Assembly (NCBI GenBank): GCA_029260165.1
Contig: JAJDDT010000097.1
Location: 11,099-75,098, forward strand
DNA: 64,000 bases
Source: Phycisphaerae bacterium
GTDB lineage: Bacteria > Planctomycetota > Phycisphaerae > UBA1845
Reading direction: 5' to 3'
A program made the position numbers and the translations under genes. Under the pieces are notes generated by a model that had not been told where the DNA came from, ran no database searches, and was given only the letters and a program-made list of their open reading frames with translations. Shown in pieces: positions 42,555 to 49,745 of the stretch (positions within the stretch are counted from its first letter, which is position 1; each line of letters opens with the position of its first letter).

Positions 42555-45086
42555 ATGTTGGCGAGCCACGTACAACACCTTAAGACACCGACTGTCCTGC
42601 GGGGGATGCTCGTCGCAATCGCGGCGATTGGCGGACTTGCGCAGCCGGTCATTGCTCAACACTCAGTTGCTCGGGAATGGAACGAGGAGCTTCTCGACGC
42701 AATTCGAAACGATCTCGCGCGACCAACGATTCATGCGCGAAATCTTTACCACGTCTCCGCTGCGATGTGGGATGGCTGGACCGCGTACGCAGGGCCCGGC
42801 CCTGTTCCGATTTTCCACAGCGAATCCGCCACTGCGGTGGACATTCAAGCCGCTCGCGACGAAACAATCAGCTACGCAGCCTACCGTCTGCTGAAATCAC
42901 GATTCGCCAACTCCGTCGGCGCTGCCACCTCGCTGCCCTCATTCGACGCAAGGATGGTTGCGCTCGGATATGACATGAACTTCACCGACACCATCATGAA
43001 CACGCCCGCGTCGCTGGGCAACCGCATCGCGGAGACGATCATCTCGTTTGGTCTGACTGACGGCGCTAACGAAGCCAATGATTACATCAACCAGTTTTAT
43101 CAACCCACCAACCCGCCGCTGCTTCCCGCGCTACCGGGCAATCCCGACATCGTCGACGTGAACCGATGGCAACCGTTGGCGTTGCAGTTTTTCGTTGACC
43201 AGGCGGGCAACGTCATCCTTGGTGGATACCCGGAGTTTCTCGGGCCTGAGTGGGGACAGGTCACGCCGTTCTCGTTGTCTTCAAACGACCTGACGATCTA
43301 CAACCGCGACAGTTTTGACTATTGGGTGTACCACGATCCCGGACCGCCACCCTTTTTTGGGGGTGTCGATGATGACTACTACCGGTGGGGATTTGAAATG
43401 GTCGCGGTGTGGTCCTCCCATCTCGATCCCTCGGATGGCGTGATGTGGGACATTTCGCCGGCGTCCATCGGCAACGCACCGCTTCCGAATGCGGGCGACT
43501 ACGAACAATTTTACGACTTCGAAAACGGTGGCGACTGGGGAACGGGCTACACGGTCAATCCAGTTACCGGACAACCGTATACGCCACAACTGGTTCCGAG
43601 GGCAGACTACGCTCGAATTCTGGCTGAGTTCTGGGCGGATGGTCCGGATTCCGAGACGCCTCCAGGCCATTGGTTCACCCTCGCAAACTACGTTTCGGAT
43701 CATCCCCTCACCAAAAAGCGGATCGGCGGTCAGGGTGTGGTCATCGATGACCTCGAGTGGGACGTCAAGCTTTATCTCGCTCTCGGCGGCGCGATGCACG
43801 ACGTCGCGATTAGCGCGTGGGGTGTCAAGGGCTGGTACGACTATATTCGCCCCGTGTCCGCGATTCGATACCTGGCTGATCAGGGACAGTGCACGGACCC
43901 GCTGCTCCCGTCGTTTGATCCGAACGGCATCCATCTGCAGCCCGGTTACATCGAGGTGATAACGTCGGCCACGACCGCTTCCGGAGGCCAACACGAACAC
44001 CTCGTCGGGCTTGAAGGCAAAATTGCCCTTAACGCATGGCGTGGTCCGGATTACATCGCCAACCCCGCCAGCGATGAAGCGGGCGTGGGATGGATACTCG
44101 CCGAAAACTGGTGGCCTTATCAACGACCGAGTTTTGTCACGCCGCCGTTCGCCGGATACGTCTCCGGACACAGCACCTACAGTCGCGCAGCCGCCATCAT
44201 CATGACCAATTTCACCGGGTCGGAGTATTTCCCCGGCGGGCTTGGCGAGTTCCAGGCACCGCAAAATCAATTCCTCGTTTTCGAGGATGGACCGAGCATG
44301 AATGTCACGCTCCAATGGGCGAAATACAACGACGCCTCCGATCAATGCAGCCTGTCGCGAATCTGGGGTGGTATTCATCCGCCGGCGGACGATCTTCCAG
44401 GACGCATCATGGGGCAACAAATGGGTGAGGATGCGTACGCGTTCGCCCAGTCGATTTTTGGATCGGTCTGCGGCAACGGCGTGCCTGAAGACGGCGAGGA
44501 ATGCGATGACGGAGTCGCCAACTCCGACACGACCCCCGACGCCTGTCGCATAGATTGCACGAACCCGATCTGCGGAGACGACGTGCAGGATTCGGGCGAA
44601 GAGTGCGACAACGGTGCGGGTAATGCGAACGCGCCGAATTTGTGTCGCACGAGTTGCCAGCTGCCGACCTGCCTGGACGGAATCGTCGACAACGGCGAAC
44701 AGTGTGACGACGGCGTCGAATCCGCTAATTGCGACGACGATTGCACACCGGCGGTCTGCGGTGACGGAGTCGCGAATCAAGCGGCGGGCGAAGCGTGCGA
44801 CGACGCCGGTGCATCAACGACGTGCGATCTGGATTGCACGGCTGCGGTGTGCGGCGATGGGACGCTCAATCTTGTCTCCGGCGAGGAGTGCGACGACGGG
44901 AACACAAACGACGACGATGGCTGTTCTGCCATCTGCACGCTCGACGGCGCCGCACCGATACCTGCCGTTTCCGGTTGGGGCATGATGCTGTTGTTGGCGG
45001 GCCTGGCGACCGGGATCATGATTCGTTTCGGAGGATTGGCTCGCGTTTCAGTTCGCGTCGAATCGGACGCGCACAACCAGCGATAG
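42555..45086 (+). CDS. Vanadium-dependent haloperoxidase/PAP2-like protein with Myxococcus-type Cys-rich repeats and IPTL-type tail
   Basis: Signal peptide; K.WYDYIRP, PPFAGYVSGHS, SRIWGGIH; five CGxG....EECDDG repeats; tail IPAVSGWGMMLLLAGL. Confidence 0.88.
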   Translation: MLASHVQHLKTPTVLRGMLVAIAAIGGLAQPVIAQHSVAREWNEELLDAIRNDLARPTIHARNLYHVSAAMWDGWTAYAGPGPVPIFHSESATAVDIQAARDETISYAAYRLLKSRFANSVGAATSLPSFDARMVALGYDMNFTDTIMNTPASLGNRIAETIISFGLTDGANEANDYINQFYQPTNPPLLPALPGNPDIVDVNRWQPLALQFFVDQAGNVILGGYPEFLGPEWGQVTPFSLSSNDLTIYNRDSFDYWVYHDPGPPPFFGGVDDDYYRWGFEMVAVWSSHLDPSDGVMWDISPASIGNAPLPNAGDYEQFYDFENGGDWGTGYTVNPVTGQPYTPQLVPRADYARILAEFWADGPDSETPPGHWFTLANYVSDHPLTKKRIGGQGVVIDDLEWDVKLYLALGGAMHDVAISAWGVKGWYDYIRPVSAIRYLADQGQCTDPLLPSFDPNGIHLQPGYIEVITSATTASGGQHEHLVGLEGKIALNAWRGPDYIANPASDEAGVGWILAENWWPYQRPSFVTPPFAGYVSGHSTYSRAAAIIMTNFTGSEYFPGGLGEFQAPQNQFLVFEDGPSMNVTLQWAKYNDASDQCSLSRIWGGIHPPADDLPGRIMGQQMGEDAYAFAQSIFGSVCGNGVPEDGEECDDGVANSDTTPDACRIDCTNPICGDDVQDSGEECDNGAGNANAPNLCRTSCQLPTCLDGIVDNGEQCDDGVESANCDDDCTPAVCGDGVANQAAGEACDDAGASTTCDLDCTAAVCGDGTLNLVSGEECDDGNTNDDDGCSAICTLDGAAPIPAVSGWGMMLLLAGLATGIMIRFGGLARVSVRVESDAHNQR

Positions 45087-46657: not shown

Positions 46658-48424
46658 CTACGAAACCGTGGGCAGGAGGCAGACGTCCTGGACGGAATGT
46701 GTCGTCAGCCGCGCAATGGGAAGGACCGCGGACGGTGTGTCCGGGGTGGAGGTTTTCCAGACGAACAGGCGATCGCGTGCTTCGTTGGTAGCGACGATGA
46801 GATCGGCCGCGACTTCGACCCGGCGTAGCGTCTGCCCACCCGCTTCAAATCGACTGATGAACGAATCGTCAATGATGCGTGCAAAGACCGCCGACGACGT
46901 GTCGGTGTAAAACAACCGCTCGATACCATCAAAATCCACCATGAACACCGATTCGCACGAGCGTCGACGTCCCGTGTGGATCACCGTTGGATCGCCCGGG
47001 CGGTCGAGCGACCAGGCGACGACTTCCCCCTCCGCGTTCCCGGCGTAGACATTGCGATCCGTGACACAAACAGCCGTGATGATCGACCTTGATCCCACGA
47101 AAGGCTCCAGATTGGCGCCCTCATCACCGGCGAGCATGCGATAGACGACGTGATCCGCTGAAAAGTAGACACCCGTCGGATGGAACCGGGCACACCGTAC
47201 CGCCTTGGCAGGGTCTGTGACCTCCCGACAAAGACGCCTGGCTGGTTCGTCCGCACGACGGTCCCAAACCAGCAAACCAAGCTCCGAATGCGTCGCGTAG
47301 AGTTGGTCACCCGCAATGGCGACTGAATTCACACCGCCACGAACCTCGCCGACCTCATCCGCCCGATAGGATATCATCTCCCCGCCAAGGTCGGCCGCCA
47401 GCTCGTAAACCCCCACGGACGCACCGATGCACAGTCGTTGTGCACCGTTCGCATCGAGGTAGGTCTGCACGGATCGGATCGGACCTATGTCACCCGCCAC
47501 AGTGATGCGATCTTTCGGCGTATCAGACGAACCGGGTTCAAACGAGAGAAGTTCATCGCCCGAACCGACGATGATGCGATCCGTGGCAAGTGCATTATCG
47601 CATGTTGCAAACAACGCTTCATACAGATGACATCGCTCGGTCTCATCAAACTGCTGAACGAGCGTCGCAAGCGAATCTGACGGCGAAGCCTCCGCCCGCT
47701 CGCGAAGCTGTTCCAACAGGGTCGCAACCCGTTCGGAATTGCTCCGTTCCGCCTGTGCACGCGCTTGTTCGACGCGATCCTTCGCTGAGATTTGTTCACG
47801 CCTGCGCTTCAATTCAGCACGAGTTCGCAACGACTGCCGATACATCGGCGCGTCGATCTGAATGTGAATCTGAGCGTCGATGTGAACCCCCGCACCAAAC
47901 GCCGCGGGTTTGAGCGACTCAAACAGTTCCCCCCCAATCGTCTCGGCATTTTCGGCGTCTATGAGAACACCCACACCCCTCCCGTCCGCCGCACCAGCCA
48001 ACCCCAACGCGATCTGCGGACGAAAATAGTCCGCGACCGTGGAATGATTGGCTGTGTTCGCACTTCCAATTACCCGGTTCCGAAATCCCACCAACTCCGC
48101 AGCCTCCGGAATCAGGTGCACGCGAAGCTCAACGTCAGCATGACACTGATAGTGATCTATCGAATGAACGGCGACGTTGGTGTATTTGAGCGAGAACGTT
48201 CCGGTTCGCACCCAGATGACCTCGGCCACCTCGTCCGACGTAAGGTCCGACCCTGCCGAGCACAAAACGCGATCACCGGTTTTTCGAATGACCACCGCGC
48301 ATTGACCGACCGGCACACGATACGACCGATTCCAGAACCCAAACAAATCCTCCGGATCGACCAGCGCTGCGAGGGCATCCTCGTTCGTGAAAAACGCTTT
48401 GACATCGAATGAATTCGTGGACAT
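46658..48424 (-). CDS. SPFH/Band-7-like domain + coiled coil + beta-propeller protein
   Basis: N-terminal RVPVGQCAVVI...VIWVRTG...HSIDH...DVELRV pattern, charged coiled-coil, WD40-like blades (GSRSIITAVCV...VYAGNAEGEVVAW). Start 48424 avoids overlap with the ATPase. Confidence 0.65.
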   Translation of the reverse strand: MSTNSFDVKAFFTNEDALAALVDPEDLFGFWNRSYRVPVGQCAVVIRKTGDRVLCSAGSDLTSDEVAEVIWVRTGTFSLKYTNVAVHSIDHYQCHADVELRVHLIPEAAELVGFRNRVIGSANTANHSTVADYFRPQIALGLAGAADGRGVGVLIDAENAETIGGELFESLKPAAFGAGVHIDAQIHIQIDAPMYRQSLRTRAELKRRREQISAKDRVEQARAQAERSNSERVATLLEQLRERAEASPSDSLATLVQQFDETERCHLYEALFATCDNALATDRIIVGSGDELLSFEPGSSDTPKDRITVAGDIGPIRSVQTYLDANGAQRLCIGASVGVYELAADLGGEMISYRADEVGEVRGGVNSVAIAGDQLYATHSELGLLVWDRRADEPARRLCREVTDPAKAVRCARFHPTGVYFSADHVVYRMLAGDEGANLEPFVGSRSIITAVCVTDRNVYAGNAEGEVVAWSLDRPGDPTVIHTGRRRSCESVFMVDFDGIERLFYTDTSSAVFARIIDDSFISRFEAGGQTLRRVEVAADLIVATNEARDRLFVWKTSTPDTPSAVLPIARLTTHSVQDVCLLPTVS

Positions 48425-48458: not shown

Positions 48459-49580
48459 TCATGATCCGTCCCCACCAAACGATTCGTATTTGACAAGCGA
48501 AGATTTCTCCACCGACGGCGGAATCACCGCGATCACGCTTTCAAGGTCCTGCATGTTTATCGGACGTGGATCTCGACCGCCAATCGCGTCGGTAAACGGA
48601 ATCGCCGCTGCACGCTGAATGATGTTTCGAATATCAGCACCACTGTAACCCTCTAATTTGTCGCACAACTCACCAAAATCGAGGTCCTCGTCTGCGGGCC
48701 TGTCACCAAAATGAATCTCCAACAATCGAAATCGAGCCGTCGCATCCGGCAGGCCAACGTACACCCTCGTATCCAAACGCCCCGGACGGAGCATGGCTTC
48801 GTCGAGCATCCACGGCTTGTTGGTGGCTCCGATAAAAAGCAACGCCCGATCCGAATCCCGATCAAACCCCTCCAACTCCTGCAAAATCTGAGGCACCACG
48901 CGTTGCATGACCGTCGACGACCCACTGCGGCGCTTCGGCACCAGCGCTTCGCACTCGTCGATGAAAATCACCGACATCGGTTCCTGCCTTGCCGCGTCGA
49001 AGAGCTTGCGAATGTTCTGCTCCGCCTCGCCGACCCACTTGCTCATGATTTGTGCGGGGCTGATGACGAAATAGGTCGCGTTCAGCTCGAACGCGATCGC
49101 CCTGGCCATCATCGTTTTGCCCGTTCCCGGTGGACCATACAGCAGCACACCGCCCCCGAGACCGATCCCGTATCGTTTCGCCAATTCCGGGTGCGACAAT
49201 GGATAGATCATCTTGACGCGGATTTCGTGCTTCACGTCCTCAAGACCGGCGATGTCGTCGAAACCAATATTCGGTTTCTCGCGAACAATCCATTCGGACG
49301 CGTCGCTGCTGTTCTCATCTTCCCTTTCGGATTGAGCACGTCGTCCACCCGACCGTGGCGACACATGCAACCGCTCGCAATCTTTGGCCAACTCGATCAA
49401 TTCCGCGGCCAATTCCTCGTGCTGCCGCCTCGCCTCGTCCGACTTCGTTTCTTCCGCCAGCGAAACCAAACACTCAGCCGCATCAATCAAGTACGCCTTC
49501 GCCGTCAGGTACTCGCCCTTCTGATAGGCAGCCACCCCCCTGGACTTGAGTCGGTCAAATGTGGAAAACGAAACTGACAT
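48459..49580 (-). CDS. Vps4/CdvC-like AAA ATPase with N-terminal MIT-like three-helix domain
   Basis: EKPNIGFDDIAGL, GPPGTGKT, SKWVGEAE, IFIDE, GATNKPW.LD, RPGRLD, GYSGADI, C-terminal PSV....VKYESF; single AAA cassette, 373 aa. Confidence 0.85.
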   Translation of the reverse strand: MSVSFSTFDRLKSRGVAAYQKGEYLTAKAYLIDAAECLVSLAEETKSDEARRQHEELAAELIELAKDCERLHVSPRSGGRRAQSEREDENSSDASEWIVREKPNIGFDDIAGLEDVKHEIRVKMIYPLSHPELAKRYGIGLGGGVLLYGPPGTGKTMMARAIAFELNATYFVISPAQIMSKWVGEAEQNIRKLFDAARQEPMSVIFIDECEALVPKRRSGSSTVMQRVVPQILQELEGFDRDSDRALLFIGATNKPWMLDEAMLRPGRLDTRVYVGLPDATARFRLLEIHFGDRPADEDLDFGELCDKLEGYSGADIRNIIQRAAAIPFTDAIGGRDPRPINMQDLESVIAVIPPSVEKSSLVKYESFGGDGS

Positions 49581-49663: not shown

Positions 49664-49745
49664 GGGTGGCCCATGGCTTCAGCCGTGGGGGAGTCGAATT
49701 CGGAATTTCCTTCGAGTCCCCCACCTCTAAAGAGGTGGGCCACCC
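49664..49745 (+). repeat. 82-bp REPIN/MITE-like element, family B
   Basis: GGGTGGCCCATGGCTTCAGCCGTGGG...CCCACCTCTAAAGAGGTGGGCCACCC. Confidence 0.92.

Follow-up and report, generated by a model that had tools for sequence, protein, structure and literature searches.

A single-cassette AAA ATPase with a Vps4/CdvC domain plan, paired with a Snf7-like gene in Phycisphaerae, as a candidate ESCRT-III remodelling enzyme

We analyzed a gene cluster in a stretch of 64,000 nt from a Phycisphaerae bacterium (assembly GCA_029260165.1, contig JAJDDT010000097.1, positions 11,099 to 75,098 of the forward strand; referred to here as the window), and in particular a 373-residue ATPase with one AAA cassette that is encoded within it. 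This analysis indicated that the ATPase is probably an ESCRT-III remodelling enzyme from a lineage that lies beside Vps4. The best explanation of the data describes it as a hexamer-type classic AAA+ protein translocase that would combine the domain plan of Vps4 and CdvC with an arginine-finger region kept in its ancestral RPGR form. The proteins on which it acts are likely to be the ESCRT-III-like products of the genes just upstream, or at least H208, the 202-residue protein of the adjoining gene. The architecture of the ATPase, its intact catalytic residues, its separate clade, its Snf7-like neighbour and the conserved pairing of the two genes were computed here.

Conserved pairing of the ATPase with a Snf7-like gene

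The genomic context provides the strongest evidence in the analysis. The genes of the cluster lie on one strand in the order Ser/Thr kinase, 78-residue open reading frame (ORF), 483-residue protein, H203 (a helical protein of 203 residues), PspC-domain protein, H208, a gap of 256 nt, ATPase and SPFH-propeller protein (Table 1). Using H208 as the probe, 69 related loci were collected from species-representative genomes and the other genes were located in them by tblastn; many of these loci end at contig ends. They derive mostly from Phycisphaerae, Tepidisphaerales or Planctomycetota, with two from other taxa, and the recurring order was kinase, 483-residue protein, H203, PspC in some loci, H208, ATPase and SPFH protein. 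We also examined 400 other Planctomycetota genomes, drawn evenly across the phylum. An H208 homologue was present in 74 of them (33-48% identity), an ATPase orthologue in 52 (E<=1e-75; 44-56% identity) and both in 49. H208 and the ATPase lay no more than 2 kb apart on one strand, with H208 first, in 35 of these 49 genomes, and the gaps were mostly 32-641 nt; among the remaining two-gene genomes, one pair was 40 kb apart and 13 were on different contigs. Three of the 400 genomes carried the ATPase without H208. An earlier reading of this DNA, made from its letters alone (the sequence-only reading), had linked the ATPase with three helical neighbours, and the link was supported for the upstream H208, which resembles Snf7 and stays paired with the ATPase throughout the Planctomycetota sampled.

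The likeness of H208 to ESCRT-III was examined by structure prediction and profile searches. Its AlphaFold2 model (mean predicted local distance difference test score, pLDDT, 72.5) contained helices at residues 7-49, 52-110, 116-148 and 162-201. A Foldseek search with this model returned S. islandicus CdvB in the top three positions (best E 8.2e-3; none at E<=0.001), and a large share of the top 50 consisted of CHMP2A/3, Loki CHMP4-7, CdvB2, CHMP1B, Asgard ESCRT-IIIB, Vipp1 and Snf7. Alignment with VIA against 48,161 chains placed Asgard ESCRT-IIIB first (Z 9.3, with 111 residues superposed in register at a root-mean-square deviation [rmsd] of 3.1); Snf7 reached Z 8.9, and Shrub, CHMP4B, CHMP2A/3, PspA and CHMP1B fell within Z 8.0-8.9. 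Weak matches to Pfam Snf7 (PF03357) were detected in 24 of 39 H208 orthologs (best E 0.0038), and the next family, CodY, was matched in 10 of 39. PF03357 detected nothing in a scan of the whole genome, but in Sulfolobus, too, such a scan yielded no match that reached the cut-off. Snf7 tags were carried by 13% of the members of the Atlas neighbour clusters of H208 and by 16% of those of the H203 neighbour cluster (score 0.93), the latter being a lead only. A homology search from the H208 alignment recovered 3778 close family members at E<=0.001, and none of the 120 listed carried a Pfam tag.

H208 and the 483-residue protein have in common an acidic tail motif that follows a variable linker (SDDEIDRLIDAE in H208 and TSDEEMAILKEFE in the 483-residue protein). 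Judged by its sequence, this motif is a plausible candidate for a docking peptide that the N-domain of the ATPase might bind. Complex prediction with residues 1-78 of the ATPase and residues 150-202 of H208 gave scores of 0.30 and 0.28 against a mark of 0.32, a result that weighs neither way. H208 is the best-supported ESCRT-III candidate of the cluster. Of the three helical neighbours that the sequence-only reading had put forward as possible binding partners, H208 showed evidence of ESCRT-III likeness, in the Foldseek and weak Snf7 matches, and H203 and the 483-residue protein showed no reliable signal.

A second pairing was identified on viral contigs. Three IMG/VR members of the clade to which the ATPase belongs (clade X, described below) are each preceded by a small ORF with a transmembrane (TM) segment and by a protein of 196-197 residues. 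A profile built from the three 196-197-residue proteins matched a Loki Vps20/32/60-like ESCRT-III protein at E 6.1e-5 (24-175 on 14-167), Heimdall ESCRT-IIIB at E 0.039 and yeast Snf7 at E 0.14. By eye, phage-like structural genes follow the three ATPases, and on these sequences each set could be a viral ESCRT-III/Vps4-like pair. Since the Planctomycetota cluster and the viral contigs each pair a clade X ATPase with a Snf7-type gene, the two kinds of gene occur together in two unrelated settings. Hidden Markov models (HMMs) of the three helical proteins found no match among the ORFs of eight viral loci, and hhalign assigned H208 a probability of 0.5% against the viral Snf7-like proteins and of 6% (not significant) against H203. 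The ATPase matches on viral contigs were mostly FtsH-like and ARC-like, with MIT or Vps4_C in none of the 21 scanned, and the RR[FL] pattern was found in no viral stretch.

The occurrence of clade X relatives on viral contigs also counts in favour of a different explanation, namely that the cluster serves anti-phage defence or conflict, with the kinase, the AAA ATPase and membrane effectors causing membrane damage or abortive infection. We regard this as very improbable. It would fit a weak match to the NCBIfam model of the anti-phage ATPase IteA (115.3 bits; the cut-off is 510) and the patchy phyletic pattern (75 of 401 genomes), which equally argues against a universal role for the cluster. 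In contrast, the ATPase is single-copy, its gene order is the same in orthologs that have diverged to 33-56% identity, and a Pfam scan of the cluster revealed no effector domain of the nuclease, TIR or Sir2 kind or the like. Whole families are also uniformly positive (11 of 11 genomes in family f28), and this pattern suggests vertical inheritance of a housekeeping module.

Domain plan and lineage of the ATPase

The ATPase gene encodes RGVAAYQKGEYLTAKAYLIDAAECL, EKPNIGFDDIAGL, SKWVGE, ATNKPW, LRPGRLD, GYSGADI and PSVEKSSLVKYESF, and the ORF and every motif cited in the sequence-only reading were thus present in the minus-strand translation. Homologues at E<=1e-10 made up 7937 of 8000 scored candidates. 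The best 120 were 66-100% identical and 367-433 residues long, and those with a name were annotated as 'ATP-binding protein' of Phycisphaerae or Planctomycetota. Alignment of 31 orthologs revealed invariant residues at G149, P151, G152, G154, K155 and T156, at K181-W182-V183-G184, at D208-E209, at T253-N254 and at R265-P266-G267-R268. Because this catalytic set is invariant across orthologs, the ATPase is predicted to be an active enzyme and no relic. A pseudogene or chance ORF was excluded by conservation in the best 120 homologues and the 31 aligned orthologs, and an identity as FtsH or PAN was dropped after Pfam detected neither a protease nor an OB domain. In the host genome, which was scored as 100% complete in 119 contigs, the ATPase is single-copy and the only other classic AAA gene is FtsH-like (36% identity).

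Domain searches revealed a single cassette, with Pfam AAA matched once (residues 145-276, E 7.9e-40) and AAA_lid_3 at residues 299-347; like Vps4 and CdvC, it contains Walker A and B, sensor 1 and a pore loop 1 with an aromatic residue. An AlphaFold2 model built from the 31-sequence alignment (mean pLDDT 81.7) contained the large and small AAA subdomains and a final helix at residues 359-371, without a beta-domain insertion. The linker that separates the N-domain from the cassette varies in length and sequence among the 31 orthologs. The best full-length match was NCBIfam CdvC (NF041006), with residues 15-367 aligned to 18-363 of its 370 positions; the score of 240.6 bits is below the equivalog cut-off of 650 and does not make the protein a CdvC equivalog. 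The AAA part by itself matched CDC48 (TIGR01243) at 227.1 bits against a cut-off of 802.65, and PAN at 217 bits. The Vps4/CdvC-like layout that had been read from the sequence (three-helix N-domain, linker, single AAA cassette and C-terminal helix) was upheld by both the CdvC alignment and the model.

The motifs were compared with reference proteins taken from metagenome contigs by means of the degenerate pattern RR[FL].KR.Y, in which the RR[FL] motif is therefore present by construction. Four of these were CdvC according to NCBIfam (L219, 675.4 bits and over the cut-off; L162, 584; L213, 554; L170, 497), and the eukaryote-type Vps4-like references scored 239-248 bits on the CdvC model, on a par with the window ATPase. 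The four CdvC references read SKWLGE, AF[LI]RRFQKRI and, at the terminus, PSV....K.YE.W; in the Vps4- and katanin-like references the corresponding stretch was A.RRR[FL]EKRI, without PG. SKWVGE was found in 37 of the best 150 hits from a 50%-identity library, and 30 of these 37 were multi-AAA Cdc48-like proteins with RPGR[FL]D. Because SKWVGE is common in such proteins and the CdvC references have SKWLGE, it is no mark of Vps4; together with ATNKPW and GYSGADI, which had likewise been taken as Vps4 signatures, it proved to be generic in Cdc48-like D2 domains.

The C-terminal tail gave a different result. The PSV...YE.F motif, which the sequence-only reading had called Vps4-typical, was common to all four CdvC references, and a similar PS[VL]...Y[EQ].F also occurred in 2 of 18 two-domain Cdc48-like proteins. 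When the protein was split, the last 38 residues matched NCBIfam CdvC and nothing else (15.9 bits, E 0.0047), the core favoured CDC48 (see below), and the first 97 residues gave no relevant NCBIfam match. As far as can be judged from these partial sequences, the likeness to Vps4 therefore resides in the layout and the termini and not in the motor core. Pfam Vps4_C (PF09336) matched residues 339-368 of the ATPase with 18.6 bits, under the cut-off of 21.3; two relatives passed this cut-off, P0226 with 29.3 bits and P0229 with 27.7 bits. Among the best 120 family members, 39 had a precomputed Vps4_C tag and none an MIT tag.

Structural comparison of the ATPase model with Foldseek ranked p97 D2 first (E 5.6e-24), and M. 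sedula Vps4 (E 2e-22) gave both the best target TM-score (0.84) and the best rmsd (2.9). When the Foldseek top 1000 were realigned with VIA-align, M. sedula Vps4 took first place with Z 29.4 (266 residues at rmsd 2.5, 40% identity), followed by p97 D2 (28.4), katanin (28.2), FIGL-1 (28.0) and spastin (27.9); A. hospitalis Vps4 (Z 27.9, 42% identity), yeast Vps4 (27.8) and S. solfataricus Vps4 (27.4, 41%) were also recovered. Identity was highest with archaeal Vps4 chains, at 40-42% compared with 35-37% for p97 D2. Since the runners-up sit within about 2 Z units of M. sedula Vps4, the modelled fold by itself cannot separate kinship with Vps4 from kinship with p97 D2.

The position of the ATPase was examined by phylogeny. 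AAA domains were cut out with the family HMM and a maximum-likelihood (ML) tree of 74 rows and 280 columns was calculated in IQ-TREE (LG+C20+F+G4 with posterior mean site frequencies [PMSF]; ultrafast bootstrap [UFBoot] and the Shimodaira-Hasegawa-like approximate likelihood ratio test [SH-aLRT]). The rows comprised nine family members, the four nearest single-cassette relatives, six tandem forms, three viral-contig proteins and both domains of P0134 and P0135, alongside the separated D1 and D2 domains of 10 two-domain Cdc48-like proteins, one ARC-like protein, four CdvC, 16 RR[FL]-type sequences (Vps4-like and katanin-like) and five FtsH sequences as outgroup. For a shorter run and fewer long branches, 32 of the 106 rows of a first quick tree had been removed, namely degenerate second cassettes, one ARC-like row and redundant meiotic, Cdc48-like, FtsH and family rows. 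The sampling lacks PAN/Rpt, NSF, PEX and Bcs1; a motif was the basis for choosing the meiotic references, and likeness to the query for choosing the Cdc48-like ones, and of the two-domain references P0161 alone was checked as VAT-like (773 bits end to end).

This analysis revealed a clade of 28 rows (clade X; support 100/99) that contains the window family, its near relatives, the tandem forms, P0134 and P0135 and the viral proteins. The Cdc48-like D1 and D2 domains grouped with the ARC-like row (99/96), CdvC grouped with the meiotic sequences (97/89), and clade X was sister to the latter group (96/86). An approximately unbiased (AU) test in which clade X was held with CdvC alone gave a tree 0.86 log-likelihood units better than the free search (p-AU 0.509). 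Clade X is thus firmly a separate clade, neither canonical Vps4/CdvC nor canonical Cdc48 D1/D2, and the ML tree leans towards placing it nearer to the Vps4 side than to Cdc48. The tree proposed as a check in the sequence-only reading therefore set the family apart in a clade of its own, outside CdvC/Vps4/meiotic and Cdc48 D1/D2, and the AU tests left the choice of sister among Vps4, CdvC and Cdc48 undecided.

Within clade X, the single-cassette relatives P0207, P0220, P0226 and P0229 are 46-50% identical to the ATPase over the full length, N-domain included. The tandem forms P0128, P0130, P0136, P0150, P0202 and P0230 have the same N-domain and first cassette, followed by a second cassette that is often degenerate. 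All come from metagenome or viral sources and have an RPGR-type second region of homology (SRH) and mostly SKWVGE. P0130, P0134 and P0135 each contain two cassettes more closely related to one another than to any other row of the tree, a sign of recent internal duplication. The ranking of a whole-library search with the ATPase was led by multi-AAA proteins because domain scores were summed, and plasmids searched by tblastn yielded ATPases at 33-43% identity, all of them Cdc48-like or without a name. One plasmid protein of Haladaptatus salinisoli, annotated 'ATP-binding protein' (NZ_CP085333.1:31726-32700), aligned with residues 16-346 of the ATPase, N-domain included (89% of the query, 32.8% identity).

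Evidence against the assignment and a Cdc48-type alternative

A number of results weigh against an ESCRT-III role. The ATPase core alone (residues 98-335) scored 225.9 bits with NCBIfam CDC48, 214.4 with PAN and 207.3 with CdvC, and the top per-domain PDB match of the protein was Cdc48 D2 (195 bits). Its SRH is of the RPGR type, with R265-P266-G267-R268 in 31 of 31 orthologs, unlike all CdvC, Vps4 and katanin references; in place of the adjacent arginines RR[FL] without PG that mark Vps4 and CdvC, the window reads LRPGRLD, as the sequence-only reading had correctly pointed out. Pfam MIT (PF04212) matched neither the whole ATPase nor its first 113 residues at E<=10, nor the locus in a genome scan, so that the MIT profile check suggested in the sequence-only reading gave no match. 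A profile of the first 80 residues matched chiefly consensus tetratricopeptide repeat (TPR) proteins in the PDB (E ~0.003, from summed partial matches), and comparison of the N-domain with eight CdvC/Vps4-like N-domains in hhalign reached a probability of only 42% (E 2.6e-4, columns 15-56 on 18-59). When clade X was held together with the Cdc48-like rows, the tree was 4.08 log-likelihood units worse and was not rejected (p-AU 0.404).

The same applies to several results for the neighbouring proteins and the related loci. The VIA Z values of H208 are in the noise range for helical proteins, for which about 13 is needed. Its own sequence in the window had no Pfam Snf7 match, the matches of its orthologs were all far under the 27.3-bit cut-off, and the H208 profile gave no match to PDB sequences at E<=10. 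Snf7 was matched in none of 38 H203 orthologs and in only 3 of 36 orthologs of the 483-residue protein (best E 0.41), for which a PDB profile search also returned no significant match. No ATPase was detected in the sequence retrieved for 32 of the 69 loci, some of which are shortened by contig ends, and 25 of the 74 genomes with H208 lacked an ATPase at E<=1e-60; 20 of these belong to one family (f60, for example G061, G131 and G168), in which either the ATPase has been lost or another partner is used.

For the N-domain, the hhalign register was the same as that of the CdvC HMM. The sole long single-stretch PDB match of its profile was 2mpk_A 'chitin synthase 1' (13-66 on 12-65, E 0.057), which we take to be an MIT domain, and MIT was detected in the relative P0226, which is 46% identical, at E 0.008. 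On the model, the N-domain is a three-helix MIT/TPR-like domain that may belong to the MIT family.

Many of these results would also be expected of a generic unfoldase of the Cdc48/VAT-D2 type with a short TPR-like helical N-domain, next to which the Snf7-like gene would be unrelated or only co-regulated. The clients of such an enzyme might be the SPFH-propeller protein, kinase substrates or damaged membrane proteins. The preference of the core for the CDC48 and PAN models and for Cdc48 D2 in the PDB, the RPGR-type SRH, the frequency of SKWVGE in D2 domains, the TPR repeats as first matches of the N-domain profile and the unrejected grouping with Cdc48-like proteins are all in line with this explanation, as is the tightest local linkage, which is that between the ATPase and the SPFH-propeller gene (32 of 37 ATPase loci). 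In contrast, the protein has one cassette and no CDC48_N-type domain, the ML tree sets clade X apart from Cdc48 D1/D2, and the CdvC model aligns across both the N- and C-terminal extensions. The order of H208 and then ATPase in 35 of 49 distant genomes and the independent viral pairing with Snf7 proteins detectable by sequence also speak against it, and we consider an unfoldase of this kind unlikely. For the deep-branching or independently recruited ESCRT-III disassemblase that the sequence-only reading had proposed, the support is partial: the Vps4 architecture, the separate lineage and the Snf7-like neighbour argue for it, and the Cdc48-type core and the undecided AU tests argue against it.

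The gene cluster and comparison with known systems

The remaining genes of the cluster were characterized by domain and profile searches (Table 1). Band_7 was detected in 10 of 25 orthologs of the SPFH-propeller protein (best E 2.2e-9), and its profile matched designed propellers (E 1.9e-19) and Aip1 (E 5.7e-6) in the PDB at residues ~316-500. A glycosyltransferase-like gene that follows the SPFH-propeller gene is outside the system, since it was present in none of the 69 related loci. A scan for promoters and terminators between 45000 and 54400 gave counts no higher than those of shuffled controls.

Table 1. Position and conservation of the features of the cluster (window coordinates unless stated; TM, transmembrane).
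Feature	Position	Strand	Related loci (of 69)	Remarks
Ser/Thr protein kinase with C-terminal double zinc ribbon	52993..54036	minus	53	First gene of the cluster; Pkinase E 5.6e-39, DZR E 2.8e-6; upstream and in the same order in related loci
78-residue ORF	52732..52968	minus	8	By eye, Zn-ribbon and TM segment; loci by tblastn; weakly conserved
483-residue protein	51311..52762	minus	56	N-terminal part and helical C-terminal part
Acidic tail motif of the 483-residue protein	51440..51478	minus		TSDEEMAILKEFE, residues 429-441
H203	50678..51289	minus	59	203 residues, helical
PspC-domain membrane protein	50470..50664	minus	26	64 residues; PF04024 86.3 bits, cut-off 25
H208, Snf7/ESCRT-III-like	49837..50445	minus		202 residues; orthologs start at ATG 50445, not at TTG 50463
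Acidic tail motif of H208	49927..49965	minus		SDDEIDRLIDAEA, residues 161-173; D166 and I169 invariant, D162 and E164 nearly so
ATPase, single AAA	48459..49580	minus	37	373 residues; one ORF, ATG start
N-terminal three-helix, MIT-like domain	49362..49568	minus		Residues 5-73; predicted helices 5-20, 24-44 and 48-73, pLDDT 85-90
Acidic, Ser-rich disordered linker	49290..49361	minus		Residues 74-97; pLDDT <50 at 75-96
Walker A, GPPGTGKT	49113..49136	minus		Residues 149-156; (nearly) invariant in 31 orthologs
Pore loop 1, KWVGE	49026..49040	minus		Residues 181-185; K181, W182, V183 and G184 invariant
Sensor 1 and SRH, ATNKPW...LRPGRLD	48771..48827	minus		Residues 252-270; T253, N254, R265, P266, G267, R268 and D270 invariant
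C-terminal helix with PSV...KYESF	48462..48518	minus		Residues 355-373; predicted helix 359-371
SPFH (Band-7), coiled-coil and WD40-type beta-propeller protein	46658..48418	minus	32	Directly after the ATPase; after it in 32 of 37 ATPase loci
Viral sets of TM ORF, Snf7-type gene and ATPase	L079:1745-3837, L080:2330-3966, L081:849-2491			IMG/VR contigs

Two further features were seen by eye. A GC-rich inverted repeat, CCACCTC...GAGGTGG, without a T-run, lies in the gap between H208 and the ATPase (49721-49744, minus strand) and is absent from the list produced by the terminator scan. Convergent with the cluster, an ORF of 843 codons (42555-45086, plus strand) encodes a protein with a signal-like N-terminus, C-terminal Cys-rich repeats of the CGDG/CDDG type and a terminal hydrophobic segment.

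The presence of a PspC protein inside the cluster and a kinase at its head also suits a Psp-like module for envelope-stress signalling, in which the ATPase would regulate the availability of a helical effector, in the manner of PspF-PspA or LiaFSR, and would not be a mechanical disassemblase. The best genome-wide match to PspA/IM30 (PF04012) had E 0.82 and lay on another contig, and the Psp effector is thus not represented; because the genome is without a canonical PspA, the helical proteins could take its role. Associations of SPFH proteins and the PspA family are described in the available texts of Ravi 2024 (PMC11237479) and Makarova 2024 (PMC10936438). In contrast, the ATPase is a translocase of the classic clade whose aromatic pore loop is intact and which has neither a DNA-binding nor a sigma-54 domain, and PspC is present in a minority of the related loci (26 of 69), the conserved core being the pair of H208 and ATPase. 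A module of this kind is improbable as an account of the ATPase, and it overlaps with an ESCRT-III remodelling role without excluding it.

In the ESCRT-III remodelling role that we favour, the helical proteins would polymerise on the cytoplasmic membrane; the PspC-domain protein and the Ser/Thr kinase might trigger this step, and the SPFH-propeller protein might organise it. The N-domain of the ATPase would dock onto the acidic C-terminal tail helices of the helical proteins, and the ATPase ring would draw subunits through its pore, so that polymers could be remodelled or recycled in membrane repair or scission. Docking, polymerisation, the identity of the substrates and the cellular process are the parts of this explanation that we infer.

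In a more far-reaching version, the cluster would be a true ESCRT-III/Vps4-type machine of bacteria that was passed on vertically within part of the FtsZ-less phylum Planctomycetota and performs membrane scission, and its ATPase would have split from the Vps4/CdvC line before the RR-type region arose. We rate this as a long shot. If true, the partnership of a polymer with an AAA disassemblase would be older than archaeal ESCRT, and the cluster might have a role in FtsZ-independent binary fission of Phycisphaerae-like cells. A search of the whole genome for FtsZ (TIGR00065) gave no match at E<=0.001, and PMC6952346, in the part available, describes all planctomycetes as lacking FtsZ and raises the question of which protein carries out division in Phycisphaerae. 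Given that FtsZ is missing from planctomycetes, whose mode of division is unexplained, the cluster is a concrete candidate for a division role. A conserved pair of Snf7-like protein and MIT-like AAA ATPase in a free-living bacterial phylum, with relatives on viral contigs, would provide a testable bacterial counterpart and would bear on the age of the partnership of polymer and disassemblase. It would also offer an intermediate, with Vps4 architecture and a Cdc48-type arginine region, for the proposed transition from Cdc48 to Vps4.

No paper on an ESCRT-III/Vps4-like system in Planctomycetota was found in a full-text literature search, although supplements may list such loci. Recent reviews hold that this pairing is missing from bacteria. 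In the portions of the literature available, a 2025 review (PMC7619361) states that a Vps4-like ATPase appears to be absent in bacteria and that PspA polymers are consequently regulated in other ways, and Liu 2021 (PMC8281802) assigns Snf7-type proteins to archaea and eukaryotes. A close precedent is Ravi 2024 (mSystems, PMC11237479), whose main text describes bacterial PspA/Snf7 neighbourhoods with a classic AAA+ ATPase, seen as ATP-dependent membrane remodelling analogous to that of Snf7 and Vps4. According to that text, the ATPase has two AAA domains of which the N-terminal copy is inactive, and the operons contain ABC transporter and PBPB-OmpA genes. It further reports 'Vps4-like transfers' in which a TPR+6TM gene takes the place of snf7, and describes band-7/SPFH and propeller-AAA partners of PspA that are proteins separate from each other. 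The string Planctomycet* is absent from this main text, and its supplements may list such loci. Unlike the systems described there, the window ATPase has one cassette and an MIT-like N-domain, its partner is a soluble Snf7-like protein, and SPFH/Band-7, coiled coil and propeller are fused in one protein.

Compared with Cdc48, p97 and VAT, the window ATPase shares with their D2 domains the RPGR region, the SKWVGE-type loop, the best core HMM score, a structural Z of 28.4 and a grouping that the AU test did not reject. It differs from them in having one cassette and a helical N-terminus, with no CDC48_N-type (double-psi-barrel) match in Pfam, in its score of 227.1 bits against 802.65, and in its position apart from the Cdc48-like D1/D2 clade (99/96). 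Compared with CdvC and Vps4, it has nearly the length of the CdvC model (373 residues and 370 positions) and the same order of parts, a KW.GE pore loop, a C-terminal PSV...YE.[WF] motif, its top structural Z and identity with crenarchaeal Vps4, and an adjoining ESCRT-III-like gene. In contrast to CdvC and Vps4, it reads LRPGRLD and not RR[FL], has no Pfam MIT match and no beta-domain insertion in the model, scores 240.6 bits against 650 and falls outside the CdvC and meiotic clade in the ML tree; its host is a bacterium, and its cluster contains PspC, SPFH-propeller and kinase genes in place of CdvA or ESCRT-I/II-like genes.

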